A stretch of DNA of 59,822 bases from an uncultured Pseudomonadota bacterium (lineage in GTDB: Bacteria > Babelota > Babeliae > Babelales > CAIQNR01): assembly GCA_964606885.1 (NCBI GenBank), contig CAZSHB010000005.1, positions 1-59,822 of the forward strand. Reading direction: 5' to 3'. Shown one piece after another: positions 28,658-59,624 of the stretch. Position 1 is the first letter of the stretch. Every line of letters starts with the position of its first letter. The position numbers were made by a program, and so were the translations under genes. The notes beneath the pieces were generated by a model. It did no database searches, was not told where the DNA came from, and was given only the letters and a program-made list of their open reading frames with translations.

Positions 28658-31129
28658 ATGGCATCAGTTATCACCTCAACAATCAAACGATCAGTGGTGT
28701 GCGCATCATTACTACTATCGTTTATTCCTTTTTCTCACACGCAATCAACGCCAACTACCGCCCCTTCGTCAGAAGATGTGCAAAAAGAGGATTTAGAAAA
28801 ACTTACCATTTCTCGTATCACCATAGATGGACTCAATTTTTTGCCCGAAGATACCATTTTAAGCAAAGTGCCCTATCATGTGGGCAGAAAGTATGACCCG
28901 ACGCTTTCAAACGCCTGTATAAACCAACTGTACGATCTTGGGTACTTTAAAAATATTACCCTCTCGCTCAAGCAAGATTCACCAACAACCGTTATTTTAT
29001 TTATTACCTTTGAAGAAAAAACACCATTAAAAGAAGTGATCTTTAAAGGCAATAAAAATATGCCCGAAAAAGATATCCATAAAAAAATAGCGTTTGAAAA
29101 AGTTGCCGCTATAGAAAAGGCAGACCTTAAAAAATACTCCACCCTGCTAAAAGAACTATACGCCGAAAAAGGGTACCACTTCACGCTTGTAACGGGAAAC
29201 ATAGAAGAAAAAGATGGTAAAGCTACCGTAACCTTCACTATTAAAGAAGGCATCCAAGCGCATGTACAAAAAGTACGCTTTAAGGGTAACAAGAGTTATG
29301 ACGGTAAAGCGTTGCGCTCTATGCTCTTTACGCGTGAAAACTGGCTTGGTGGTTTCTTAGATAAAAGCGGTTTGTACGTACCTCTTGCCGTAGAACAAGA
29401 TAAATTAACCATAGAAAACTTTTATCAAAGCACCGGCTTTTTAGAAGCAAAAGTAACTGACGCGTTGATCGAATTTGATAAAAAGAAAAAGTTTATTACC
29501 GTCACCTTTATTATTGAAGAAGGCGATAAATACACGATTAGTAGCGTCAGCGCACCTGGTAACGATATTTTAACAGAAGAAGAACTGAAAGCGGTTATTC
29601 CTGTTATGCCAGGACAATACTATTCAAAAGAGTTGCTACGTATGACCATTGAACGCTTGCGCACACTGTGGGGCCAACATGGATACATCTATGCGGATAT
29701 TCAACCAGCTCTTGATCCTAATCCAAAAGAACAAACAGTCGCAGTAACGTTCTACTCAGAACCGGGTAATAAAGTATTTTTAAACAAAATTAATATTCTT
29801 GGTAACGAAAAAACACGCGACAAAGTGGTTCGCCGCCAAATGGTTATTGAAGAAGGTGACATGCTCACCACAGCAGGCATGGACGTGTCTAAAAACAAGA
29901 TCAACCAACTTGGCTACTTTGATTTAAAAGAAGGCGTTAACTGGAAGCTCACACGCTTAAATGATGAAACTGCCGATCTTGATATCCTTCTTAAAGAAAT
30001 CAAAACGGGTAAGTTCGAATTTAGAGCAAATTACGGTGGTACCCCTGGTAAAATACAAAGTACCGCAAGTGGTTTCTCTGTACAGTTAACCGCATTAGAA
30101 CGTAACTTATTCGGTTCAGGTATGTACGCTGAACTTATGGGCCGCGTGGGTGCTGACGAAATGCTCTATAACTTTAACATCATGCAACCATGGTTCTGTG
30201 ACCGCCCTATCTATCTTGGTTGTGAAAGTTATTACAGCAGCTCGGTGTACGAAGAAATCAAAAAAGTTAAACAATCAATTGACGAAAAACGCATCGGTGG
30301 TGCTGTTAAAAGCGGTTTCATGTGGCAGAGCAAAATTGACACAGCCGTTAGATTTATCGCCGGGTTTGAAACGATTCATAACACGCGACCGGTAGCACAA
30401 TTTGCGGGCAACTTAACTGCCGAAGCTGAATACCAAATAATTCTAGATGAACGTTTTAAGACTTCTAAGTTCTTCTATATAGAAAACAAACTCGAACAAG
30501 ATACACGTAACCACAACCTCCATATTACCAATGGCCACTTCTGGACATTGACCAACAAGATCGCATTCCCTGCACTTGATGACAACGTCAGCTTTTACAA
30601 ATTAGACGCAGACCTCCATTGGTACAGCGCTATTATTGGTAGCACAACACTGGTACTCCACTTACATGGCTATTTAGGCATCGTAACGCCTCTTGGTAAC
30701 AACCGAATTCCATTTAGAGATCTGTACAACATCGGTGGCCAAGCAAGCGTACGTGCGTGGAAATTTGGTCAAATTGGGCCAATGTGGACGGTAAACGAAG
30801 CTCGTGTTGACGATGAATGGCAAGGCGAACCGATTGGTGCACAAAAAGCATTCTTCTGTAACGCAGAACTTATCTTCCCTATTACGGAAGATTTAAGCAT
30901 CAAAGGCTCAGCATTCTACGATGGTGGTGCTGGTTGGGATACACCAAAGAAAGGTGTTATTAATCCATCTCGTTTAGTGAACAACTCGTTTGATTACCGT
31001 CAGTGTATTGGTATCGGCTTACGTTTACTTAAACCACAACCAATGCGTATCGATTGGGGCTTTAAGCTCGACCGCCGCCCTGGGGAATCGGCAAGCGAAG
31101 TTAACTTTACCACCTATTACGACTTCTAA
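28658..31129 (+). CDS. bamA: Outer membrane protein assembly factor BamA (POTRA repeats plus Omp85 barrel)
   Basis: 823 aa. AGGAG RBS and signal peptide. Repeated POTRA-like units (I..I.F.GN......L.......G..Y). GNEKTRDKVVRRQM (conserved GN..T.D.V+RRE block). C-terminus ...NFTTYYDF. Confidence 0.9.
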   Translation: MASVITSTIKRSVVCASLLLSFIPFSHTQSTPTTAPSSEDVQKEDLEKLTISRITIDGLNFLPEDTILSKVPYHVGRKYDPTLSNACINQLYDLGYFKNITLSLKQDSPTTVILFITFEEKTPLKEVIFKGNKNMPEKDIHKKIAFEKVAAIEKADLKKYSTLLKELYAEKGYHFTLVTGNIEEKDGKATVTFTIKEGIQAHVQKVRFKGNKSYDGKALRSMLFTRENWLGGFLDKSGLYVPLAVEQDKLTIENFYQSTGFLEAKVTDALIEFDKKKKFITVTFIIEEGDKYTISSVSAPGNDILTEEELKAVIPVMPGQYYSKELLRMTIERLRTLWGQHGYIYADIQPALDPNPKEQTVAVTFYSEPGNKVFLNKINILGNEKTRDKVVRRQMVIEEGDMLTTAGMDVSKNKINQLGYFDLKEGVNWKLTRLNDETADLDILLKEIKTGKFEFRANYGGTPGKIQSTASGFSVQLTALERNLFGSGMYAELMGRVGADEMLYNFNIMQPWFCDRPIYLGCESYYSSSVYEEIKKVKQSIDEKRIGGAVKSGFMWQSKIDTAVRFIAGFETIHNTRPVAQFAGNLTAEAEYQIILDERFKTSKFFYIENKLEQDTRNHNLHITNGHFWTLTNKIAFPALDDNVSFYKLDADLHWYSAIIGSTTLVLHLHGYLGIVTPLGNNRIPFRDLYNIGGQASVRAWKFGQIGPMWTVNEARVDDEWQGEPIGAQKAFFCNAELIFPITEDLSIKGSAFYDGGAGWDTPKKGVINPSRLVNNSFDYRQCIGIGLRLLKPQPMRIDWGFKLDRRPGESASEVNFTTYYDF

Positions 31130-46663: not shown

Positions 46664-46847
46664 GATGTATCAAGAAGAAGCCATAAAAGTTATGTTTAAA
46701 GCTTATAGAGACGTCTTTTTATCTTTCTCTTTATTTCATTGCCCCACTATTGATACCATTTCAAATAGGAAATATATACTAGTAAATTAAGATGAAGATA
46801 TTTTTAGCTTGGTTAACGACAATAATATTTTTAAAGGAAGAAAAGTC

Positions 46848-48809
46848 ATGATGTTTAAAATATGTATGTTTCTTATATTACTAGGTTGTGCAACAACACA
46901 AGCTGCCAGTCAAACATTTCAAGAGTTAGTAGAACAATCACAAATTTTTGAAACGTCCACGCCGTTTCCTACCATAAACAATCGTATTGCAACTATTGCT
47001 GGTAATAATCCAGTACTGCAAAATCTTATTGCGCAACAAGCACAAAACGTACGTGTGATTATGCATCCAAAAGTATTAACGCTTATGGACGACTTTCTTG
47101 CCTATAAAAAAACAAAGGGAACTCCTACTGAACAAGCACTCTACAAAGATATGACACTTAACCAATTTGTAGATCGACTCTTAATAAAACGCCCTCTCAT
47201 GTTTATGACAGAACATGATCAGTATCTCTTACGTAATGGCAAAGAAGGCTATGAAGGTTTTACGCATATTGGCACTGCTTTAGAACAAAAGCCGTTATTG
47301 CTAATCGACTATCTTTCGTATGACGAAATGCAGATAGCCGCCCTCATAAGTGTATCAACACCAACCTATTTTATTAACAATGGCTCTCGTACCAATAAAA
47401 GTGTTATAGGAGCTCCTGGCACCTACCAACCAACAGGCATCTACACTGGTCTTGTTGGTGCTCGCTTTGAAAAACCGAATCTTATGGAATGGCAGCATAT
47501 GCTTATTACATCTGAACAAAATACACGCGATAATGGGTATGGAAAAGATTGCAAGCAGAACAAGCTGTTAGCATTGTGGCAGACTTTTTACGGTGAAGAA
47601 TTTCCTGATTTTCATCAAGTAGATACTCTTTATAACGCTGGCGATCATACCATGTATCACAAGATAGATAGTACAACCTATCTTAATAACTCCGTATATA
47701 AAAAACGGTTAGAAATGGTTATTCTTCCATTTCTAATTGATGCACACGTTCGTGGTAAAAAAGCCCTTAAAAAAGTGTACTGCCATATTGTTGGACTTGG
47801 TCTTGGCGTATGGCAAAAAAGTCCGTATCAAGCACAGCTGATGGTAGAAGTGTACGCAGACTTACTAACACAATATGATTTTTCTTATATAGCAGATATT
47901 GATTTTAGTTGGTTCCCTCAAGATATACAAACGTGCGGTACAACAGCGCATGGACAGCTCTTAACAGCAGGAAACAACCGTATTACGATACACTTTTCTC
48001 AACGTAACCCTGCCGACAAACTAGTAGGTGCAGATAGCGATAAACTGTTAGTTGCTCAATATGCATGGGATGGCAATGCGTATCCTGGTAACGAATACTG
48101 GAAAAAGCAGCTCACTGCTTCTGGCGACCCTGCAGCTGCCTGTTGTTCAACCATTGCAGAGTTACAAAACCCTTTGATTAACAAAAGCGTATCTTCACAA
48201 AGTCTCTTTATTGCTCAACCTACCGTGCATACACCAAAACAACACCACACAGCTACATCTGCACCAGCTGCCGTTGCAATAGCAGCAATCACACCATCTG
48301 TACAACCAACAGCTTCTGGCACTCAACAAGTAGTAGCTTCTCCTGCACATCCAATGTTTACACCTCTTACAGCATATAGAAATAACCACATGCAAAATGT
48401 TGCTATTCCAGCACCAACTACTCATAGACTTAATTTTTCTATGCAGACTCCAACCTATAGAACAGAAGAAGCAAATCTTCATTTAGACAGATCTGCACAA
48501 CAGAAAATTGGGAATTATATAACTAGTTTACAAGTAGCTGACTATGCATATCTTATTGCACTAGCCCATATGAAAAAAGTAACCCCAGAATATATCGTTG
48601 GCCGCTACTATCAAGCTCATGGCACTATGCTCGATGCTACAATTCCTATTAGCACAGTATTAGCTTGGTATCTCAACATGTATTCTGATACGTTACAAAC
48701 ATCTGCAGCAACCATAAAGTTAGAAAACAATGTCCATAATAGCACGCAATCAGGTCTAGCAACAAAAGCAATGCAAGCTTTAAGCAACTGGTGGTATGAA
48801 CAACCATAA
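46848..48809 (+). CDS. Large hypothetical secreted protein: ~440-aa globular region, then Thr/Ala/Pro/Gln-rich linker and a C-terminal helical region
   Basis: AAAGGAAG RBS before ATG 46848. Signal MMFKICMFLILLGCATTQAAS. Conserved-looking blocks VYCHIVGLGLGVWQ and LVAQYAWDGNAYPGNEYW. Possibly a DUF4804-type (macro-like) family, from memory only. Confidence 0.6.
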   Translation: MMFKICMFLILLGCATTQAASQTFQELVEQSQIFETSTPFPTINNRIATIAGNNPVLQNLIAQQAQNVRVIMHPKVLTLMDDFLAYKKTKGTPTEQALYKDMTLNQFVDRLLIKRPLMFMTEHDQYLLRNGKEGYEGFTHIGTALEQKPLLLIDYLSYDEMQIAALISVSTPTYFINNGSRTNKSVIGAPGTYQPTGIYTGLVGARFEKPNLMEWQHMLITSEQNTRDNGYGKDCKQNKLLALWQTFYGEEFPDFHQVDTLYNAGDHTMYHKIDSTTYLNNSVYKKRLEMVILPFLIDAHVRGKKALKKVYCHIVGLGLGVWQKSPYQAQLMVEVYADLLTQYDFSYIADIDFSWFPQDIQTCGTTAHGQLLTAGNNRITIHFSQRNPADKLVGADSDKLLVAQYAWDGNAYPGNEYWKKQLTASGDPAAACCSTIAELQNPLINKSVSSQSLFIAQPTVHTPKQHHTATSAPAAVAIAAITPSVQPTASGTQQVVASPAHPMFTPLTAYRNNHMQNVAIPAPTTHRLNFSMQTPTYRTEEANLHLDRSAQQKIGNYITSLQVADYAYLIALAHMKKVTPEYIVGRYYQAHGTMLDATIPISTVLAWYLNMYSDTLQTSAATIKLENNVHNSTQSGLATKAMQALSNWWYEQP

Positions 48810-48943: not shown

Positions 48944-49393
48944 TTAGCGCTGACTATTACCAGCATTATGTAACTCATACGGAACATGGCAAAGACCTAA
49001 GATAGCCAACGCATTTTGATCATGCCCTAGTAATGCACCTCTTATACGCGGTATTTTCACCTGTAAGTTTTCTTTAATCTGTGCATCCTCACACAGTATT
49101 GCAGTTCTTGTTTTAACTGCTTCATCTACAAGCGCCAAAAGAGACGCAAGAGACATTCTACTATCTTTTTTAACCACACCTAAGCACGTATGGGTAAACA
49201 AACTTTCATCTCCAAGCTTACTTTTAAACTTTTTAGCAAGTGCAGCATTTGGCAACATAGGAGGAACATACGCATCCAAAAGTTCTTGTGCCGACACAAC
49301 CGGCAACGCATTCACGTTGTCTATGCCCGCAGCGCCAAGAGTTAAACCCCATACCAACAAAACGCCACTGCTTACGATATACTTCATAGTCAT
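48944..49393 (-). CDS. Hypothetical secreted protein
   Basis: 149 aa. Signal-like MTMKYIVSSGVLLVWGLTLGAAG. No family recognised. Confidence 0.55.
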   Translation of the reverse strand: MTMKYIVSSGVLLVWGLTLGAAGIDNVNALPVVSAQELLDAYVPPMLPNAALAKKFKSKLGDESLFTHTCLGVVKKDSRMSLASLLALVDEAVKTRTAILCEDAQIKENLQVKIPRIRGALLGHDQNALAILGLCHVPYELHNAGNSQR

Positions 49394-49463: not shown

Positions 49464-49907
49464 TCAGAAGCTAGCAGCTAAAACTCTCAATATTTCCTGA
49501 TGAGCCCGTATATCTTTAATAACTTGTGATACATGTTGATCATTGCCAAGCAACAACATATCGAACATTATTTTTTCCAGTTCTTCATTGTATCCTCGTG
49601 CAGTTGGGGTTATTATTCCCCAGGCCCATGCAGGTCGTTCGGCTACTGGTGTCTTTACAATATCCACAGCAATTTCTTGTACTTTTGTGTATACCTCTTC
49701 TAACGTAACCGTTCTCTCTCCAAAACCTATAAGAATATATGCTTGCGGAAACGGCCCTCCACGAGGGTCATTATAAGAATCTATTTTTTCTGTTATTGCG
49801 CCCCTTGAAGACATCTGTACCTTAACCTTACCCGTATTAGCATCAACAAGACTTGCATAACAAGGCGCCACACAGAGACTCATCAATAACAACAATTTTA
49901 GTTTCAT
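49464..49907 (-). CDS. Hypothetical secreted protein
   Basis: 147 aa. Signal MKLKLLLLMSLCVAPCYAS. No family recognised. Confidence 0.55.
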   Translation of the reverse strand: MKLKLLLLMSLCVAPCYASLVDANTGKVKVQMSSRGAITEKIDSYNDPRGGPFPQAYILIGFGERTVTLEEVYTKVQEIAVDIVKTPVAERPAWAWGIITPTARGYNEELEKIMFDMLLLGNDQHVSQVIKDIRAHQEILRVLAASF

Positions 49908-49987: not shown

Positions 49988-50608
49988 CTAGAACGTAAAG
50001 CCGATACCAGCGCCAAGATCCACACCTGCAACCTTAGTAGCAAAACCTATATAGGTAGGCGTAGAGGCTTGAGCTTGGAAGGTCACTGCTGAATACGCAA
50101 CAAACAAATCAATAACAAAATTATCTACAGGATGAAAAAATACGCCAAAGGTACCGTAGCCACCAAAAGAACTTTCTTTTTGTTCCGCAGGTACATACGT
50201 AGAGTTATTAGCAATCTTCATAAAATAATAACGGGGTGCTGCTGCCAGATAGATATCAATGTTATGGTGCACAGAACAGAACCACTTTGCACCAAGCGTA
50301 ACAGGCACCACTTTAATCGTTGTACGTTGATTGCCATTTTCAGAATAACCATGAGCAAACAGATAGTTCACTTGCCCGAACAACGTCACCGGAGGAAACC
50401 TTTTTGGTACAGCTTCAGAGACATGATTAAACACCAGACCATATTGCTGCCACGCCTTACCATAGATTGTTTTTACAATATGACTGGTAGGCAAAAAAGC
50501 ACTTACCGTACCTTCAACTGCAACATCCGCATATGCTGTTTGTATACACAAGACAAACGCCATTATAGCTATTTTGTTTTTGATCATACTTCTATACAAG
50601 TAACGCAT
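49988..50608 (-). CDS. Small outer-membrane beta-barrel protein (paralogue of 53130-53723)
   Basis: ATG 50608 has a GGGAG RBS. Signal ...IKNKIAIMAFVLCIQTAYA. Alternating-pattern strands. C-terminus GAGIGFTF. Confidence 0.65.
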   Translation of the reverse strand: MRYLYRSMIKNKIAIMAFVLCIQTAYADVAVEGTVSAFLPTSHIVKTIYGKAWQQYGLVFNHVSEAVPKRFPPVTLFGQVNYLFAHGYSENGNQRTTIKVVPVTLGAKWFCSVHHNIDIYLAAAPRYYFMKIANNSTYVPAEQKESSFGGYGTFGVFFHPVDNFVIDLFVAYSAVTFQAQASTPTYIGFATKVAGVDLGAGIGFTF

Positions 50609-50816
50609 ATTGACTCCCAAGCAATAATACCGACCATAAAAGATGGTTATAATAAAGAAAACCCGTTTGCTACAAGAAAAAACCTCTCACCAACTCATAT
50701 GGGTAACCAGCAAAAGTCCACCCTCTATCCTTTTTTACCAATAGATGCTATAATGGCTATTATCAAACATCTTCACATTTTACATTTTCATATTCATTAC
50801 AACAGGAGGGATTGCC

Positions 50817-51581
50817 ATGAAAATCCTAAACCACATCATCGCAGGTTTGTTACTTGCGCTTGCAATCACTACCGTATTTCAATCATATTACGTGGTTGAA
50901 CCGGGGTGGTCTGCCTTACAAATTCGTATGGGTAACATTATAGCTGCACATAAAGAAGGCGGCGTTTATTTTAAAATACCATTTATAGATCGCATTGCAT
51001 GGATGTCTAACCGTATACAAAAAGCATCAATTGAGACCTCTGCGCTCTCAAAAGATTTACAAGCCATAAGTATCGGTATTGATGTTAACTATCGTTATAC
51101 GAACGAAATTGAACTGTATAAAGCAACTTTAGGACACCCTGAAGAAATCATTCTGTTCCCATTCTGCCACGAAACTATCAAGGCAGTGATTGCACAGTAC
51201 ACCGCTGAAGGGTTGATCACTAATCGACACCAAGCAAAAAACATGATTTACGAAGATCTTAAAGAACGCTTACACCCACACTTTATCGAGTTTATTGAAG
51301 TTAACTTCTCGCATGCTGATTTCTCTGCGAACTTTATTAAAGCTGTAGAAGACAAACAGATTGCACAACAAGAAGCTATGGCTGCAAAAAACACGACAGA
51401 ACGTGTGCGTGAACGATCAGTACAAGTTAAGTTAGAAGCTGATGCAGATGCGTATGCACAACAGGTTAAAAAACAATCAGTAACTAAAGAACTTATTGAA
51501 CTTAAAGCTATTGAAAAGTGGGATGGCCACTTGCCCAATGTTATGACTGGACATGTGCCGTTTATTAATTTAAACAAGTAA
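50817..51581 (+). CDS. Prohibitin/SPFH (band-7) family protein
   Basis: AGGAGGG RBS. N-terminal TM helix. YVVEPGWSALQIRMG... SPFH start. FIKAVEDKQIAQQEA...A coiled-coil, typical of prohibitin-type members. Confidence 0.8.
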   Translation: MKILNHIIAGLLLALAITTVFQSYYVVEPGWSALQIRMGNIIAAHKEGGVYFKIPFIDRIAWMSNRIQKASIETSALSKDLQAISIGIDVNYRYTNEIELYKATLGHPEEIILFPFCHETIKAVIAQYTAEGLITNRHQAKNMIYEDLKERLHPHFIEFIEVNFSHADFSANFIKAVEDKQIAQQEAMAAKNTTERVRERSVQVKLEADADAYAQQVKKQSVTKELIELKAIEKWDGHLPNVMTGHVPFINLNK

Positions 51582-51600
51582 CTTCTACTTTTATGTATAC

Positions 51601-51632
51601 AAAAAGCCCCGATGTTAAAGTCGGGGTTTTTT
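51601..51632. terminator. Bidirectional rho-independent terminator
   Basis: AAAAAGCCCCGA-TGTTAAAG-TCGGGGTTTTTT, between convergent genes. Confidence 0.8.
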
Positions 51633-51649
51633 GTATATATACTTCTTGC

Positions 51650-53113
51650 TTAAGAACCGGACTGAATGCCTATCAACACAATTGGGGTAGTTGCTGATCC
51701 AAACCCACTAACTGTATAGTCTACTTGTTCATCAGGTGACTGGTTGTGATCTTGATAGGTCATTTGTGTACCGGGGACTGTTGCTAGAAGTGTAGTTAAG
51801 CGCTGAATCTGATAAGAAGAAACAGAAGCGTTTATTGGCGACCACCAGGACAGTTGGTTAAAGAATTCTCCGTAATTAGCAAATCTATTAAGAAGCGTTG
51901 TGCTCGTGCTCAGTGGTCCCAGAGATGTGCCACTATACACAGCAGAAAATCCATTCACAACGGGAGTATTATAACCATTTATCCACGTCATATAGATACT
52001 GCCACCACTTATAGGCATATACGTCACACATCCCAAACCCCCTGCTGACGCTCCTGTTGTAAGATAATTAGGAATTGATTGTTTGGGAACAATAATCGTT
52101 CCATCTCGAGCAACTATGCAGTAATGATACTTCGCATCAATGCCCATCCACGTCAGAAAGTACGTACTATCTACAGGATTAAAAGCACCAGTAATAAACA
52201 TACTCAATGAAGGATCAATGGTACTAGTTGCAAATGGTGTTGCCGTTACTACCGGGGTACCAGTTGCATCATATATTACAAAATAACAACCACCATTAAT
52301 GGTTGTCCATGCCATAAGATACTGATTATTATTGTTATAAATATTGGGAACAGTGAGAGAGTAAACAGTATCTCCTAGATCCGGAGTGAAAGGAACAGTT
52401 ACTAAACCTATCCCTGCATCAAAAGTTCCATTTGCATTATAGACTGCAAAAACAATGGTTTCTGATGAAGTTTGCCATGATATGAGATACTGATTTGCAG
52501 TACTATTATAACAAATAGAAGAAGTATACGTATCTGAAGCTATGGTACTCCCTGGAATAACAGTAGTACTGCTTACTGTCCCATCGGCATTAAGAATGAC
52601 AAAACAGACTTGTCCATCTCCATTATTAGAAGTAATACCATATTGATTAGTCGTACTATTATAGCAACAGACAGGTGCGCTAAACGGATTAGCCGTTAAA
52701 GTAAGCGCCACTGTTGGTCCAGATACTAGAGCGCCCGTTTGATCCACAATAAAAAAGTACATGCTATAATCTCCCTCAGCTCCTAAAAACATGATCAGAA
52801 ACTGATTATTTTGTGTGTTATAACAAGATGAGATAGCTGAAGAAGCAATGCTAATTGCACCACCATACTCAAGCAAAAGAGTGGGCAATGCATACGGCGT
52901 TCCATTAGGGTTAAAAAGCGTAGAATATAATCCCTCAGGCGTAACCCATGCAGCAAGAATCTTGTTTGTTTGCGTGTTATAGGCAGTAGTTATTGATGAC
53001 CAAAAACCACCTGTTGAACCACTATCAACGGCTAAAGTAGGATTCAACACTGCTTGTGCGCTAGCACCAGCTAACAACCATAAACATAGTACATACACAC
53101 GAACAACATTCAT
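51650..53113 (-). CDS. Secreted protein with seven ~45-aa repeats (beta-propeller-like) and a C-terminal FN3-like domain shared with 53741-56242
   Basis: AAGGAGAG RBS. Signal MNVVRVYVLCLWLLAGASAQA. Repeats carry (C)YN(S/T)xxNQ(Y/F)L(I/M)xW ... F(V/I)(I/V)...(D/N)GT (e.g. CYNTQNNQFLIMF, CCYNSTTNQYGITS, ICYNSTANQYLISW, IYNNNNQYLMAW). The last 81 aa align by eye with the C-terminus of the glycine-rich protein (YQDHN motif). Confidence 0.75.
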   Translation of the reverse strand: MNVVRVYVLCLWLLAGASAQAVLNPTLAVDSGSTGGFWSSITTAYNTQTNKILAAWVTPEGLYSTLFNPNGTPYALPTLLLEYGGAISIASSAISSCYNTQNNQFLIMFLGAEGDYSMYFFIVDQTGALVSGPTVALTLTANPFSAPVCCYNSTTNQYGITSNNGDGQVCFVILNADGTVSSTTVIPGSTIASDTYTSSICYNSTANQYLISWQTSSETIVFAVYNANGTFDAGIGLVTVPFTPDLGDTVYSLTVPNIYNNNNQYLMAWTTINGGCYFVIYDATGTPVVTATPFATSTIDPSLSMFITGAFNPVDSTYFLTWMGIDAKYHYCIVARDGTIIVPKQSIPNYLTTGASAGGLGCVTYMPISGGSIYMTWINGYNTPVVNGFSAVYSGTSLGPLSTSTTLLNRFANYGEFFNQLSWWSPINASVSSYQIQRLTTLLATVPGTQMTYQDHNQSPDEQVDYTVSGFGSATTPIVLIGIQSGS

Positions 53114-53129
53114 ACTCTCTCCTTATTAA

Positions 53130-53723
53130 CTAGAACGCATACCCAACACTTGCACCAAATGCAAAACCGCCTATCTGTGTGCCGCCATTACTGTAGACGT
53201 TAAGCATTGTTGGACGTATCGTTTTCTTTTCGTATGAATATTCTCCAAAAACACCCAACAGGAAATGTTCTTTGATGTGCATGTTAAAGCCCATATTCAT
53301 AAAGAACCCAACACCACCGCCATTAATAGTCGGGTCGATATACGGTGAATTATTGTGTTGATGGAAATAAAAGAAGCGTGGACCAAACGCAACAAAGTAA
53401 TAATAACAATCCCAAAATTCAAAGATTGCTTTTAAACCAATATCAATTGGCACTGCAGTGAATGTTGTTGTTTCACCTGTATTTAATGCACTGCCCCATG
53501 CTTTTCGCACACCAAGACTGCCGTACACCGCAAGATATTTATACACCGGAACGGATCCACTGCCTTGCAGTTCAAATCCACCTTTGTGATAAATTGCATG
53601 CATCGGTGATGTAGCAAAAAAGAAGTAACTTGGTTTTAGTTCCAACCACGGTGTTAGATCCGATGCATGTTGCGTTAATGAGCACAACAGTACAGAAGAA
53701 AGTAAGGTAATTTTTTTATACAT
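53130..53723 (-). CDS. Small outer-membrane beta-barrel protein
   Basis: ATG 53723 has an AAGGA RBS and gives the signal MYKKITLLSSVLLCSLTQHA. An alternative ATG at 53744 overlaps the upstream stop as ATGA. Aromatic-rich alternating strands. C-terminus GASVGYAF. Confidence 0.7.
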   Translation of the reverse strand: MYKKITLLSSVLLCSLTQHASDLTPWLELKPSYFFFATSPMHAIYHKGGFELQGSGSVPVYKYLAVYGSLGVRKAWGSALNTGETTTFTAVPIDIGLKAIFEFWDCYYYFVAFGPRFFYFHQHNNSPYIDPTINGGGVGFFMNMGFNMHIKEHFLLGVFGEYSYEKKTIRPTMLNVYSNGGTQIGGFAFGASVGYAF

Positions 53724-53740
53724 ACACCTATCCTTTATAT

Positions 53741-56242
53741 TCATGGAACAGTAACTGTAGCTGATGTACTCATATTACCATTAGCATCACGTGCAATTAA
53801 TGCATACAAGAACGATACTCCAAAGGGACGATTATGATCTTGGTATAAAGAAGCAGTAGCAGGCAATGTTGCAATCTCTTGTCCATCTCGATACAACAAA
53901 TACGCTGCTGTTTGTGATGATGGGCTAAGTGTCCATAACAACTGATTATACAATTCATACGCCAACCCAAAATTATTTTTCTTTTGCTGCCCTTGTAAGT
54001 TTGATGGTGGCTCTATAAAACCAGCAAAATTCAATTCCACACGCGTAGGGCTTCCAAGTGGTAGATACGAAAGCGTATAATTGGGAGTTGCTCCCGTAAA
54101 AGTCACAGAATCAAACGTGCCAGTAATACTAGAAGAAGTAAGAAGCGTATACGTACCTGCTGGAGTATCTGAATCAATAGCAAGTTCTAAAACACCTGCC
54201 AACGATGCAGCTCCTGTAACGTCAACTAAGGATGCACCACTTACATCAATCGTGCTATGCACAAGAGCACCTAATGCGCCTGGAGATGCTGCAAAAAGAG
54301 TTAAGCTACCAAGCGTAAGTGTTTCTCCCGTATCTGGAGATATCGTTCCAGAATTTACAGTAACAGCCCCTGTTAAAGTTCCACTGCCACTTAACGTACC
54401 TCGTTGTGTACCAGAAGCAAGATCTCTACAAACACGAATTTCTGCTGTATTAATCTCTCCATTTACTTTAAAGTTTGCATTATTAATCAAAACAGTACCC
54501 GTATAATCAGTTGTTCCATTATAAATAACAGTTCCATTTCCTCTGACAAATACATTTGTTCCTACTCCACCAAAACTAGTATCATCAACAAAGGCAACAC
54601 CACTTCCCAGCGTCAAAATATCATTGACACCATCTGCTCTGAAATTAAGCCTAGAATTTGATCGCAAGAAAATACTATATCCCAATTCTGATCCATCAAA
54701 GCCATCCTCTGCTCCAGAAGCACCTGTACCACCAATTCCTTTTTGTACGGTAGTGTTTACGGTATTAAAAACAGTTGGAATACCAGAGAACGCTTGTATG
54801 GTAAACTCTAGACCAGTATCTACAAAAATAGCACCGCCTAGACCACTACCACCACCACCGCCTCCTCCACCAGAACCTGCGCCAACTGAATTTGCACCCG
54901 CTCCACCAGAACCGCCACCAAGATTACCTGTATCAGAACCGCCATCAGCAACACCTCCATCAGTTGGTCCACCACCGCCTCCTCCACCGCCGCTTGCAGA
55001 ATTGCCACCAGTTGCAAATGTTGTACCAGATGAGACAACACCACCGCATCCTCCACCGCCCCCAACACCGCCTGATCCACCTTGCACAGAATACCCTGAA
55101 TCATAAAAACCTAGACCAGCGCCACCGCCTCCACCACCTGCGGAACCACCATTACCAGCCCTGCCATCAATATTAACCGTTGTACCATTAACAACGACCC
55201 CTCCACCACCGCCACCGCCTCCATCACCGCCCCAACCTCCAGAAGGCGTTCCTCCACCTGGAGGCGTAGAACCTTCCGGTTGCTGACCAGTATACCCATT
55301 ACTTCCACCACCACCTCCACCAGATTGTGCAAGACCAGCACCACCACCTGCACCACCTGCTCTTATTCCTCCCGACAAACCTCCTCCACCAGAACCAGCT
55401 GTTAAGATAAGTCCATACCCATTTCCATCAGACCCAGGATTATCATCATCTCCACCATGACCTAAATTTGTAGGTGTGCCTGCAGTAGCTCGTGATCCTA
55501 AACCGCCACCACCTCCGCCGCCGCCTCCAGCTGGATCTCCAAATGGAATAGTAACATTACCACCATTACCACCAAAGCCACCGCCACCTGCACCGCCAGT
55601 GCTCCCTGTTGTAGTAACCGAACCACCATTACCACCAAAGCCTCCTCCTCCGCCGCCGCCCTCATTACCCGTAGAGGCACCACCCATATAACTTCCTCCA
55701 TTACCCCCAACAGCAGAACAATTGTTGATTGAAACGTTGATTAACGTGATTGTAGGATCTGAACCATTTAAAAAAGATTGCGGTGCATAGATAGCACCCC
55801 CTGCACCCATTCCACCACCGCCGCCAGAAATACCATCTCCTCCTTCACCACCCTGTGCAGTAAAATTTTGAAAGATCATATTTTGAATGGTCACATTACC
55901 CATAGGAATAAAAAATCCAGGATACGTATTTTGTCCGTCAATCGTAACAGTCGGGATAGAACCAGCATTACCAATAGTGATAGTTACAGGATGTGTTGAA
56001 TTATTAATGATCGGCAAAATACCATTAAGTTGAATCGTCATAGGAAAATCAAAAACAATCGCATAATCATCAGCTGCACTATTATTTAACTGATCATTCA
56101 TGGTATTTAAGCAATACCGTAAATCACCCACGTCACCAACACCACCGGCATTATCATCTGAACTTAGTGAGACATGGAGCGTTGTTAAAGCATGCAAAGA
56201 CGATGAGGCAAAAAGAAGCACTACATAGATATATTTAAACAT
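53741..56242 (-). CDS. Large secreted glycine-rich beta-helix protein (Pmp/autotransporter-passenger-like) with no barrel domain of its own
   Basis: 833 aa. Signal MFKYIYVVLLFASSSLHA. N-terminal GDLRYCLNTMN...IVFDF...ITI.G (CSLREA-like start of parallel beta-helix adhesins). GGAI motifs (GAGGAIYA, LGGAIFV). A ~340-aa tract dominated by GGxGG/GGNGG (aa ~130-470). Passenger-like GTLSGSGTLTGAVTVNSGTISP...LTLGSLTL...GVLELAI...GTYTLLTSSSITGTFDSV. C-terminal 89-aa FN3-like domain. Confidence 0.85.
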   Translation of the reverse strand: MFKYIYVVLLFASSSLHALTTLHVSLSSDDNAGGVGDVGDLRYCLNTMNDQLNNSAADDYAIVFDFPMTIQLNGILPIINNSTHPVTITIGNAGSIPTVTIDGQNTYPGFFIPMGNVTIQNMIFQNFTAQGGEGGDGISGGGGGMGAGGAIYAPQSFLNGSDPTITLINVSINNCSAVGGNGGSYMGGASTGNEGGGGGGGFGGNGGSVTTTGSTGGAGGGGFGGNGGNVTIPFGDPAGGGGGGGGGLGSRATAGTPTNLGHGGDDDNPGSDGNGYGLILTAGSGGGGLSGGIRAGGAGGGAGLAQSGGGGGGSNGYTGQQPEGSTPPGGGTPSGGWGGDGGGGGGGGVVVNGTTVNIDGRAGNGGSAGGGGGGAGLGFYDSGYSVQGGSGGVGGGGGCGGVVSSGTTFATGGNSASGGGGGGGGPTDGGVADGGSDTGNLGGGSGGAGANSVGAGSGGGGGGGGSGLGGAIFVDTGLEFTIQAFSGIPTVFNTVNTTVQKGIGGTGASGAEDGFDGSELGYSIFLRSNSRLNFRADGVNDILTLGSGVAFVDDTSFGGVGTNVFVRGNGTVIYNGTTDYTGTVLINNANFKVNGEINTAEIRVCRDLASGTQRGTLSGSGTLTGAVTVNSGTISPDTGETLTLGSLTLFAASPGALGALVHSTIDVSGASLVDVTGAASLAGVLELAIDSDTPAGTYTLLTSSSITGTFDSVTFTGATPNYTLSYLPLGSPTRVELNFAGFIEPPSNLQGQQKKNNFGLAYELYNQLLWTLSPSSQTAAYLLYRDGQEIATLPATASLYQDHNRPFGVSFLYALIARDANGNMSTSATVTVP

Positions 56243-56315
56243 AAGAAAACCTAAAACTATTTTTGAGCAGCACCTACTTACCTGGCAACAAGATAAGCTG
56301 TGCGCAATACATTAT

Positions 56316-57173
56316 TCAAGTCTTAAAGCTGGGTAGCTCTGAAAATAGATATTTCTGAAGAATAAAATAGGGCCTCATAGCAAACGCAATAGTTGCATAG
56401 CGCACGTTATCAGATTGCATGACAACATGCGGCGTTGGATAGATAGAAAATTCCGCTAAAAGCGTTCCTGGGATAAGCAGCATAGAATGAGGAAACATTC
56501 TTGTAGGCACAGAAAAATCATCTACCGTAAATACAGATTTGTATGCAGAAAGCAACAGTGATTGATTATCAGTACTATCAAGCAACAAAGAAAACGCAGT
56601 GCCATCATAATGCGGTTTTATGGGAGTATATGTAGACAAATATTTTACCACTTTAAATAAAATGGGTACCTGCTCATACGCTGAAGAAAACATTGCTCCT
56701 CTGCCTAGCTCATCTGCCGCTTTTTGAAACACCTCTCCATAGGGTTGTTGTATTGCTCTACAACTTTCAAGAAAATTCACAAGCGCAGACAGCTGAATAA
56801 GCTCTGGATAACGAGCTTTTATAAAATCATGAAAATGAGTTGAATAATAAAAAGATATCTGACTTCTTGCCCGTATTTTTGATTCATCGTAAAAACCAAA
56901 AAAATCTGTTGCATAATAGTTTTTATCTTGTGAGCGAATAAAACGTTCTTTTGCATTATTTACTTTTTGTGCCCACTTTGGGTTTGCTTGCAGAAATGTA
57001 ATTAATACATCAAAGTGCTTATACAAAGCATCAAACGCTTCAGCTTCTTGCAGTCTATCAGCTATTTCTACATAACCAATCTGCGCAAACTGTTCTGCAA
57101 AAGACAACCCCCTACACGGAGTAAAAGAACAGACAAAGGCGATGTAGAGCACTACAATTTTTTTAATCATCAT
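56316..57173 (-). CDS. Secreted protein with a 2OG-Fe(II)-oxygenase-like motif pattern
   Basis: 285 aa. Signal MMIKKIVVLYIAFVCSFTPC. KPHYDGTAFSLLL (HxD), ...MLLIPGTLLAEFS..., PTPHVV (distal His) and RYATIAFAMRP (Arg) occur in the order and spacing of the isopenicillin-N-synthase-like dioxygenase fold. Judged by eye only. Confidence 0.4.
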   Translation of the reverse strand: MMIKKIVVLYIAFVCSFTPCRGLSFAEQFAQIGYVEIADRLQEAEAFDALYKHFDVLITFLQANPKWAQKVNNAKERFIRSQDKNYYATDFFGFYDESKIRARSQISFYYSTHFHDFIKARYPELIQLSALVNFLESCRAIQQPYGEVFQKAADELGRGAMFSSAYEQVPILFKVVKYLSTYTPIKPHYDGTAFSLLLDSTDNQSLLLSAYKSVFTVDDFSVPTRMFPHSMLLIPGTLLAEFSIYPTPHVVMQSDNVRYATIAFAMRPYFILQKYLFSELPSFKT

Positions 57174-57398: not shown

Positions 57399-58001
57399 TT
57401 ATTTGCTTAGATAATTCTCAATAAAATTAACCGTATCTTCAGAACCACTTTCTTTCGCATCATCAAGCGCCGTATGTCCCATGTAATTCACAACAGTAAC
57501 ATCAACTCCTGCATTGAGCAGGGCTTTAACTATAGCAATATTACCTTGAAGGACAGCTGCATGAAGCGCTGTACTCCCCATACAATTTATAGCATTCACA
57601 TCAGCACCTGCTCGTAATAAAGCTTCAACTATTGAAACATGACCCTTAGCAACAGCACGCATAAGCGCTGTTGTACTGTCAGTATCTATTTTATTGACAT
57701 GTGCACCCGCAGCTAACAAAGCATGTACCGTTTCAGTACACCCTGCCTCTGCTGCAGCCATAAGAGCAGTTTCAAAAATAGGCCAATCTGCAGCATTCAC
57801 GTCAGTACCTGAATGTAAAAGTTTTTTAAGAGCATGAGTATCACACGCTCTTGCAAGATCTAGGAAATGATTATAACGAACTTGTTCTGGTGTTTCTTGC
57901 ATCTCTTCAATAACAATTCCACCTTCTAATGTAACATTAGCCTGAGCTACAAAATCGATAAAAAGTACAAACACAAACAAACTTTTTTTGAACATATTCA
58001 T
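57399..58001 (-). CDS. Secreted ankyrin-repeat protein
   Basis: 200 aa. Signal MNMFKKSLFVFVLFIDFVAQA. At least four ANK repeats (TALMAAAEAGCTETVHALLAAGAHVN, TALMRAVAKGHVSIVEALLRAGADVN, TALHAAVLQGNIAIVKALLNAGVDV, TALDDAKESG). Confidence 0.9.
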   Translation of the reverse strand: MNMFKKSLFVFVLFIDFVAQANVTLEGGIVIEEMQETPEQVRYNHFLDLARACDTHALKKLLHSGTDVNAADWPIFETALMAAAEAGCTETVHALLAAGAHVNKIDTDSTTALMRAVAKGHVSIVEALLRAGADVNAINCMGSTALHAAVLQGNIAIVKALLNAGVDVTVVNYMGHTALDDAKESGSEDTVNFIENYLSK

Positions 58002-58656: not shown

Positions 58657-59331
58657 TTAAAGTTTGAAAGCTGCTTTTATACTTTGAGCAATTTCAGTCG
58701 CAGTTTGTAGATGTGGAAACACTTGAAGATCATACACAATATCACCATACACATAATCATAATGGCTACGCGCATGCCCTACAGGAGAAGTACCACGCGC
58801 TTTTTCTCGCTCTTCTAATACTTCCAGAGGAATAGCAACTTTAACCCAATACGTTTTAGTATATTTCAATTTCTTTTGCAGATCTTCAATCCAAGCTTTT
58901 TTATACGCTATATAATCTACAATAATATTACACCCCTGCTGTGCATATGCTGCAATAGCAGTATTCATAGCATATGCAACACGATCTCCATCAGGACCAA
59001 CATACAAAGTAATTATATTATGCCCTTGCGCATCTTTGGTTGATTCTACCCAACGAATAGCATTTTCTTTCTGCCAAAACCCAACCTTTTCTGTCGTAAT
59101 ATCTGGTAATGGTACATTTGGAAATGGTGCATCAAAAAGTGTATCTATCCCTAATTTGATCCAAAGTTGTGGCATCATCAGTTGCTGAAACTCTTTTTGT
59201 ATAGATGTTTTACCTGCTGCAGATGGACCATTAAGTACAATCACTGTTCCAGTATTAAGCTGATTGAACCACCATCTATAACCAACAGCTATAACCACCA
59301 TAAACAGTAGGGATGCTATAAAATACTTCAT
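58657..59331 (-). CDS. P-loop kinase of the chloramphenicol-phosphotransferase-like (CPT) family with N-terminal membrane anchor
   Basis: AAAGGAA RBS before ATG 59331. TM helix YFIASLLFMVVIAVGY. Walker A VIVLNGPSAAGKTSI (CPT family LNG.SSAGKS). Confidence 0.5.
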   Translation of the reverse strand: MKYFIASLLFMVVIAVGYRWWFNQLNTGTVIVLNGPSAAGKTSIQKEFQQLMMPQLWIKLGIDTLFDAPFPNVPLPDITTEKVGFWQKENAIRWVESTKDAQGHNIITLYVGPDGDRVAYAMNTAIAAYAQQGCNIIVDYIAYKKAWIEDLQKKLKYTKTYWVKVAIPLEVLEEREKARGTSPVGHARSHYDYVYGDIVYDLQVFPHLQTATEIAQSIKAAFKL

Positions 59332-59381
59332 ACACAATTCCTTTCAAATGACTTATCTTAAACATAAAAATTTAATAAAAT

Positions 59382-59624
59382 TTACCAAAGTCTCTTTTTT
59401 GCAAATGCTCTACCGGCACCTGATTTTAAATATTTTTCAAATGCTGTCGCTTTTAACTTCTCTTCAAAAGCAAGAACCATAACGACTTTCCACGGACGAG
59501 CATCTTTAGTATAGATTGATCCACCAGAGTTATGAGTCTCAAGTCTTTCAGAAAGATTATCTGTATGACCGATATACGTGCGATCTGGAAAATTTATAGA
59601 TTTAATGAGGTAAACGTAATACAT
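59382..59624 (-). CDS. GIY-YIG nuclease-domain protein (UPF0213-like, 80 aa)
   Basis: YYVYLIKS....RTYIGHTDNLSERLETHNSG......ARPWKVV matches the GIY-YIG core (GIY...YIG..R..H/N). Confidence 0.8.
   Translation of the reverse strand: MYYVYLIKSINFPDRTYIGHTDNLSERLETHNSGGSIYTKDARPWKVVMVLAFEEKLKATAFEKYLKSGAGRAFAKKRLW

Follow-up and report, generated by a model that had tools for sequence, protein, structure and literature searches.

A putative modular tag-and-barrel system with a passenger-linked oxygenase-like protein in Dependentiae and Chlamydiota

Several described secretion systems resemble in part a locus that we analysed in contig CAZSHB010000005.1 of an uncultured bacterium of the Babelales (59,822 nucleotides; this whole stretch of DNA is called the window below). 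The locus is a minus-strand string of four genes, (i) to (iv), encoding an oxygenase-like protein, a glycine-rich passenger protein, a small outer-membrane beta-barrel and a seven-repeat protein. Type Va autotransporters resemble gene (ii) in their Sec signal and in a long passenger of beta-helix type that contains GGAI motifs; however, gene (ii) lacks their β-domain. Its place is taken, from a fixed junction onwards, by an FN3-like C-terminal domain (CTD), and the downstream gene encodes a separate barrel of 8 strands. In two-partner secretion (type Vb, TpsA/TpsB), adjacent cognate genes likewise encode the cargo and its outer-membrane partner separately, but TpsB is an Omp85 protein of 16 strands that carries POTRA domains, and recognition depends on an N-terminal TPS domain, whereas the barrel encoded here has 8 strands and 197 aa, the tag is C-terminal and no TPS domain was found in the Pfam search. 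Closest in logic are the type-B cargo proteins of the type IX secretion system (T9SS) with their PorP/SprF barrels (SprB/SprF of Flavobacterium), which combine a small C-terminal beta-sandwich tag, a downstream cognate barrel and cargo-specific barrel paralogues; the tag here is FN3-like and the barrel a small 8-stranded one of OmpW/OmpA-like type. The proposed type Vf (Helicobacter BapA/Hop) comes nearest to it in the size of the barrel: 8 strands, too few for a conduit, display a large surface domain (PMC6555100). Its passenger, however, is a loop within the barrel polypeptide (between strands 1 and 2), whereas cargo and barrel in our locus are separate open reading frames (ORFs) 17 nt apart.

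The searchable literature on Dependentiae/Chlamydiota surface proteins and on split autotransporters yielded no description of the module, and no Pfam or NCBIfam family covers its tag-and-barrel combination. We propose, with a probability of roughly 0.55, that the window holds two cargo-barrel cassettes of one modular outer-membrane display system, together with a passenger-specific oxygenase. Each cargo would be exported via Sec and would carry an FN3-like CTD at its end. The barrel, which is OmpW/OmpA-like, has 8 strands and is specific to its cargo, is normally encoded 10–20 nt downstream of the cargo; it would be inserted by the beta-barrel assembly machinery (BAM), would recognise its own CTD and would thereby hold the cargo on the cell surface. 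The cargo itself might cross the outer membrane in a BAM-coupled manner, as in type V secretion, or via a type II secretion system. The window contains a BamA gene (28658-31129, plus strand) with five POTRA domains and an Omp85 domain, indicating that the organism is diderm and equipped to insert small barrels.

An earlier note on this stretch, made from the sequence alone, had read the four genes as one probably co-transcribed secretion or display module matching no architecture known to its author. Its description of the layout is accurate. The ORF listing places gene (i) at 56316-57173 (285 aa; a Sec-type signal peptide and a 2-oxoglutarate (2OG)/Fe(II)-oxygenase fold), gene (ii) at 53741-56242 (833 aa), gene (iii) at 53130-53723 (197 aa; an 8-stranded outer-membrane beta-barrel) and gene (iv) at 51650-53113 (487 aa; a signal peptide, seven repeats and an FN3-like CTD), all on the minus strand and separated by spacers of 73, 17 and 16 nt. 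All four N-termini look Sec-type, as judged by sequence only. The sole strong hairpin, a bidirectional terminator at 51593-51640, lies beyond gene (iv), where it ends both the (i)-(iv) string and a convergent Band_7 gene. An alternative start of gene (iii) at 53744 would give an ATGA overlap; the protein database carries the 197-aa form. Pfam and NCBIfam searches returned no match for any of the four proteins. The notion of a dedicated module stands as far as the CTD tag, the dedicated barrel and the oxygenase-like partner are concerned, all of which are conserved, but the four-gene block is not its unit, as gene (iv) was seen beside the other three genes in no other locus fetched.

Genes (ii) and (iv) do share a C-terminal domain, as had been noticed at the outset: BLASTP aligns 43 aa of the two proteins at 37% identity (E 1e-6), and a CTD profile covers ~107 residues in both (E 2.5e-44 for (ii) and 9e-27 for (iv)). 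The CTD forms the last ~95 residues of each protein. In gene (ii), the tag region occupies 53741-54079 (the profile match spans 53747-54079 and is followed by the last codon and the stop) and comprises ~15 residues before the junction described below and then the FN3-like CTD, ~residues 738-833; in gene (iv), the CTD is found at 51674-51994. A relationship to FN3 is suggested by 10 of 49 gene (ii) family members, which match PF00041 (best E 2.2e-5; the window protein itself is unmatched), and by the hit of the CTD family profile to the FN3 domain of NagJ in PDB (2w1n, E 6e-4). The same profile also finds the C-termini of unrelated Chlamydiota proteins, several of them lactonase/YVTN-type 7-bladed propellers.

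The barrel encoded by gene (iii) has 147 homologues at 55–70% identity. Its structural model (predicted local distance difference test, pLDDT, 87.2) has 8 strands, and the protein ends in ...GYAF, in line with the predicted barrel with a terminal Phe. The model matches OmpW (TM-score 0.75–0.82) as well as the OmpA transmembrane domain (OmpA-TM) and OmpX, so by fold the protein belongs to the 8-stranded outer-membrane protein (OMP) class of the PF13505 clan. Its profile match to that class is weak: PF13505 is found in 22 of 56 family members and not in the window protein, and a comparison of the gene (iii) profile with PDB sequences gave nothing meaningful. Mean column identity in the barrel family is 56%. 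In the presumed extracellular loops, 14 of 41 positions are conserved, compared with 67 of 177 overall (counted on the alignment and the model). Loops conserved to roughly the same extent as the rest would be unusual for an exposed OMP and fit a conserved partner.

The closest homologues of the window proteins come from metagenome-assembled genomes of Candidatus Babeliales/Dependentiae, and the arrangement is found again in Dependentiae and Chlamydiota that are amoeba-associated. The triad (i)-(ii)-(iii) is kept in the same order and spacing in all fetched Dependentiae loci, in Estrella lausannensis and in Chlamydiales bacterium 38-26, so the neighbourhood is conserved among relatives for three of the genes. 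Gene (iv) stands beside the triad in none of the other loci fetched, and a four-gene operon was rejected as the conserved unit. A scan anchored on the barrel and covering both phyla found a CTD-ending ORF directly upstream in 16/16 genome loci; taken from the other side, the barrel is the next gene in ~26 of 30 distinct loci with a CTD-type gene (ii). The CTD always sits at the extreme C-terminus of the cargo, and the gap between the CTD ORF and the barrel is 7–50 nt. The cargo of Chlamydiota barrels is often a lactonase/YVTN-type propeller, and two loci (L005 and L011) contain two CTDs and two barrels each. These counts indicate that the conserved units are (i)+(ii) and CTD+barrel rather than the four-gene block. 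The earlier note had allowed that the barrel might be a generic protein also occurring unlinked: the fold is indeed OmpW/OmpA-like, but unlinked occurrence is not what the scan found.

The two parts of the anchor also appear to diverge together. Among 19 sequences, the distances between barrels follow those between the CTDs (Mantel r 0.61, partial r 0.47), with a partial r of 0.07 for the rest of gene (ii); we take this sequence-based correlation as modest evidence for pairing. In the two Chlamydiota genomes carrying the triad (Estrella, L022; Chlamydiales bacterium 38-26, L023), the passenger is ~70% identical to that of the window, which is no lower than among Dependentiae, whereas barrel and CTD separate by phylum (barrel identity 34–40% versus 51–70%). 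The pattern suggests either transfer between the phyla or extreme constraint on the passenger, with the anchor diverging as a module.

Gene (ii) has 683 homologues of ~830–850 aa at 65–70% identity, with a mean column identity of 75%. Their named sources include Babeliales and, among Chlamydiota, Estrella lausannensis, Chlamydiales bacterium 38-26, Parachlamydiales and Rhabdochlamydia. The signal peptide and passenger occupy 54080-56242 (~residues 1-721). As the earlier description of a glycine-rich, passenger-like protein implied, Gly makes up 25.6% of the sequence and 46.8% of residues 131-470; the protein consists of an N-terminal beta-helix-like section, the Gly core, two GGAI motifs and a C-terminal passenger segment. 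A conserved segment before the junction runs to ~residue 737, within the part assigned above to the tag region. Tandem-repeat expansion was rejected as the origin of the Gly region, in which repeats are short and imperfect and the Gly positions are individually invariant across homologues. Membership in the Pmp family was likewise rejected: PF02415, TIGR01376 and the other Pfam/NCBIfam models do not match, and the Pmp-like motifs amount to the two GGAI and to three strings of the FxxN type, of which two read FGGN and lie within Gly runs. A profile of the passenger found nothing meaningful among PDB sequences. We consider that the protein is probably an adhesin or host-contact protein of intracellular bacteria.

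The coding of so much glycine leaves its mark on the DNA. Positions 54000-56000 have a GC content of 47%, against ~39% elsewhere in the window, a GC skew down to -0.33 and long Pro-rich antisense ORFs (e.g., 54624-55106 and 55476-55691), all attributable to the Gly codons of the minus-strand gene; the antisense ORFs, as mirrors of these codons, were rejected as genes. In several loci (L001/L006, L003, L004/L007 and L010) gene (ii) is split into several ORFs, as is gene (i) in L004, with the breaks in gene (ii) falling mostly in its Gly-rich part, among the GGN runs. Errors in the consensus are a more probable cause than pseudogene formation, since L002, another assembly with the identical barrel protein (P0002) and the same upstream gene order as L001, keeps an intact gene (ii).

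The key result comes from variants of gene (ii) itself. In six loci (L016, L029, L072, L075, L076 and L092) the passenger runs into an autotransporter linker and a PF03797 β-domain (E 9.7e-39), giving proteins of 1146–1150 aa when the gene is complete. Passenger parts of gene (ii) and these variants are 61–71% identical, and residues 1-764 of the window protein are 65% identical to the L016 protein (PF03797 E 9.7e-39). PF03797 itself matches neither gene (ii) nor 49 members of its family, so the window protein has the Sec signal and a passenger homologous to autotransporter passengers, but not the β-domain of type Va. CTD-type and autotransporter-type sequences part at one fixed junction, after '...PTFVQFDFLGY' at ~residue 737. 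No curated family fits the locus, as the claim of an unrecognised architecture would have it, but the passenger is no stranger to type V secretion. The Pmp-like autotransporter adhesins Waddlia wcw_0271 and Protochlamydia pc0303 (PMC2878342, PMC6490308) may represent the autotransporter-type variant. In four further loci (L056, L059, L065 and L083), a Lys/Arg-rich tail of ~70 aa (e.g., '...KRHFKRLKKFFKHKEVRYIV...') replaces the CTD and may constitute a third, electrostatic mode of anchoring. The passenger of L028 has tandem Ig-like units, and those of L062, L077 and L090 end at the junction. This exchange of C-terminal domains identifies gene (ii) as a relative of type Va passengers with an exchangeable C-terminal module, and the occurrence of the same passenger on an autotransporter β-domain elsewhere implies that the CTD with its barrel in trans fills the position of the type Va anchor. 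The autotransporter variants are also the reason why we expect the cargo to face outwards, exposed on the cell surface, with the CTD presumably bound to its own barrel.

Gene (i) has 715 homologues at ~60% identity, none of them annotated. The dioxygenase-like HxD...H...R pattern proposed for it is confirmed: H188-x-D190, H249 and R258 are invariant in 54 homologues, and the AlphaFold model (pLDDT 74.7) shows a double-stranded beta-helix of the 2OG/Fe(II)-oxygenase type. H188, D190 and H249 would form the putative iron facial triad, accompanied by the basic residue R258. Foldseek matches include AtDAO1, CC_0200, anthocyanidin synthase (ANS) and ethylene-forming enzyme (EFE) (E 4e-9 to 1e-7), whereas sequence profiles gave no Pfam match and nothing meaningful in PDB; the assignment to the superfamily is therefore one by fold, HxD...H triad and basic residue. 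The family consensus at the N-terminus, '...FQSLxA|xP', resembles a cleavable signal peptide.

The position of gene (i) hints at its substrate. Of the 33 metagenome loci that extend far enough downstream, 32 have gene (ii) directly after it, whichever C-terminal module gene (ii) carries; gene (i) keeps this position when CTD and barrel are replaced by the autotransporter domain, by the Lys-rich tail or by nothing. Gene (i) is thus linked to the passenger and not to the tag or barrel, and because it accompanies the passenger whatever the anchor, we infer that the oxygenase acts on it. The protein is most likely an extracytoplasmic 2OG/Fe(II) oxygenase hydroxylating the passenger. The modifying enzyme suspected in the earlier note is therefore retained as an oxygenase-like partner, although one tied to the passenger rather than to the tag-and-barrel part. 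Collagen prolyl 4-hydroxylase and Asp/Asn beta-hydroxylase, 2OG oxygenases that modify proteins of the secretory pathway, offer a parallel, in that a signal-peptide-bearing oxygenase of the 2OG/Fe(II) fold is here tied genetically to a glycine-rich exported protein; unlike them, gene (i) groups structurally with small-molecule oxygenases.

Gene (iv) belongs to a second cassette. Its seven repeats, as counted originally, are ~50 aa each and span residues 44-407 (six significant, one weak); the protein has 189 relatives, no Pfam family and full-length orthologues P0362-P0364. The idea that its CTD and that of gene (ii) are served by the one barrel between them does not survive comparison. A barrel paralogue, brl2 (49988-50620, minus strand; probable start at 50587, MIKNK...), lies nearby and is 24% identical to gene (iii) (E 7e-12). 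In L104-L107, four loci from three independent relatives, the orthologue of gene (iv) is followed within 10–13 nt by a barrel of 195–196 aa that is 40–48% identical to brl2 but 23–28% identical to gene (iii) in full-length alignment (24–31% over BLAST local segments). Gene (iv) therefore pairs with brl2-type barrels, and a single barrel for both cargoes was rejected; (ii)+(iii) and (iv)+brl2 are the two cognate pairs of the window.

A plus-strand SPFH/Band_7 gene (50817-51581; PF01145 E 1.8e-23), which is not part of the module, now separates gene (iv) from brl2. Given the gap of 10–13 nt in the relatives, it looks like a local rearrangement or insertion. Downstream of brl2, two genes (49464-49907 and 48944-49393) encode signal-peptide proteins of 147 and 149 aa with no family match; they may belong to the (iv)/brl2 cassette, and no homologues of them were found in the short loci L104-L107. 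The triad of L004 and L005 and, in L105, a cargo-barrel pair of the (iv) type occur in the same chromosomal neighbourhood, just downstream of mgtE and near a pseudouridine synthase gene, which may be a preferred site of such cassettes.

Other explanations of the barrel and the tag deserve consideration. The barrel might be a generic small OMP or OmpW-like channel that merely inherited its position, with no interaction and with the CTD as a plain FN3 spacer. Its OmpW/OmpA/OmpX fold, the PF13505 matches in 22/56 members, the FN3-like nature of the CTD and the CTD-type genes lacking an adjacent barrel are all compatible with this, yet we find it improbable in view of the adjacency, which holds in both phyla and for three or more unrelated classes of cargo, with an extreme C-terminal CTD and a gap of 7–50 nt, and of barrel clades that follow cargo type and diverge in step with the CTD specifically. 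An envelope scaffold or outer-membrane tether, in which the barrel would anchor CTD proteins on the periplasmic side and the glycine-rich protein would form a structural layer, is unlikely to a similar degree. Such a structure would replace tethers that Dependentiae lack, as homologues of the four known tethering systems of the outer membrane were not found in their genomes (bioRxiv 10.1101/2021.05.31.446380). The strong conservation of gene (ii) and the barrel (75% and 56% mean column identity) is also what one would sooner expect of structural proteins than of adhesins. Against such a tether, the same passenger elsewhere sits on an autotransporter beta-domain, which exports passengers outward; other cargoes are enzyme-like propellers; and Pfam/NCBIfam searches detected no peptidoglycan- or inner-membrane-binding domain.

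Least probable among the alternatives, in our opinion, is that genes elsewhere encode a T9SS-like machine, or another one of several components, for which the CTD is the sorting signal, with PorP/SprF-like or PorV-like barrels as shuttles or anchors. The layout does recall T9SS type-B cargo, whose beta-sandwich CTD likewise forms the extreme C-terminus and whose cognate barrel gene comes directly after it, but the T9SS models TIGR04183 and TIGR04131 and the PorP/SprF model PF11751 match none of (ii), (iii) and (iv), the barrel has 8 strands and ~175 mature residues compared with the ~300 aa of PorP/SprF, and neither Dependentiae nor Chlamydiota are known to possess a T9SS. A rival of a different kind concerns gene (i), whose product could leave the passenger unmodified and be an effector that is co-exported, or else a small-molecule oxygenase whose substrate is a metabolite of the host or the environment, with the barrel possibly the channel for that metabolite. 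AtDAO1, anthocyanidin synthase and ethylene-forming enzyme as nearest structural neighbours speak for it, and OmpW-type barrels are generally known as channels for hydrophobic compounds; however, gene (i) keeps its place beside (ii) after CTD and barrel have been exchanged and is thus passenger-linked, which makes this explanation doubtful, though we give it more credence than the three above.

Several observations also weigh against the proposed display system with its passenger-specific oxygenase. The 8-stranded barrel is too narrow for the passage of a polypeptide and so cannot itself be the export route of the cargo. Four or five loci with CTD-type gene (ii) have no recognisable adjacent barrel (L036, L040, L073 and L085/L086), and L017 combines two CTD proteins with one barrel. 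The correlation between CTD and barrel distances in the 19 sequences could be explained by common ancestry or transfer as a block. A mean column identity of ~75% is unusually high for a surface adhesin. As for the oxygenase, the nearest Foldseek neighbours are small-molecule enzymes at a TM-score of only ~0.5, and a periplasmic 2OG oxygenase has little known precedent. Finally, the only sequencing runs found to contain the sequence are six metagenome DNA runs, from freshwater and activated sludge.

We nevertheless regard the display system as the best account of the locus and speculate further that the CTD and its cognate 8-stranded barrel constitute an unrecognised two-component display or secretion pathway, a "type V in trans" of tag and receptor. 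It would serve diverse cargo in Dependentiae and Chlamydiota, be interchangeable with the autotransporter β-domain and be coupled to the first dedicated extracytoplasmic 2OG oxygenase modifying a bacterial surface protein. This extended claim is tentative, and we would expect it to fail somewhat sooner than to hold in full. The module combines type V-like with T9SS-type-B-like logic, and there is a realistic chance that it represents a new pathway.

Dependentiae and environmental Chlamydiota live as obligate intracellular bacteria in protists, and little is known of how their envelope and their contact with the host are built. The tag-and-barrel system of this locus, with its putative oxygenase specific to the passenger, is modular, conserved and without annotation, and these two phyla of intracellular bacteria have it in common. 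Few unannotated gene pairs seen here are as conserved as (i) and (ii), with 715 and 683 homologues, respectively, at ~60–70% identity. That two unrelated phyla of one lifestyle share the pair speaks for a host-facing role and probably for horizontal transfer. If the proposed display system is correct, a tag-and-barrel pair replacing the autotransporter β-domain would be a new form of outer-membrane anchoring and perhaps of export. A C-terminal tag followed by a small barrel gene would then serve as a rule to flag surface proteins in both phyla, and the small trans-acting anchor could become a useful tool for surface display.

The remainder of the window is ordinary chromosome, with the BamA gene, a penicillin-binding protein, MutS/MutL and tRNAs; exact-sequence look-ups of its proteins returned no match. 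It also encodes markers of an intracellular lifestyle. A 666-aa protein (46809-48809, plus strand) contains a full-length MavL-like ADP-ribosylhydrolase domain (PF16062 E 3e-121), a family known from Legionella effectors, which fits such a lifestyle. The gene directly upstream of gene (i) (57399-58001, minus strand) encodes an ankyrin-repeat protein of 200 aa whose N-terminal segment is signal-like, and ankyrin genes are also found near the triad in L003, L004 and L008. Further upstream lies a gene for a chloramphenicol-phosphotransferase-like (CPT) P-loop protein (58657-59337, minus strand); a CPT-like gene adjoins gene (i) in L013, with 56% identity. A small GIY-YIG protein is encoded at 59382-59624 (minus strand).

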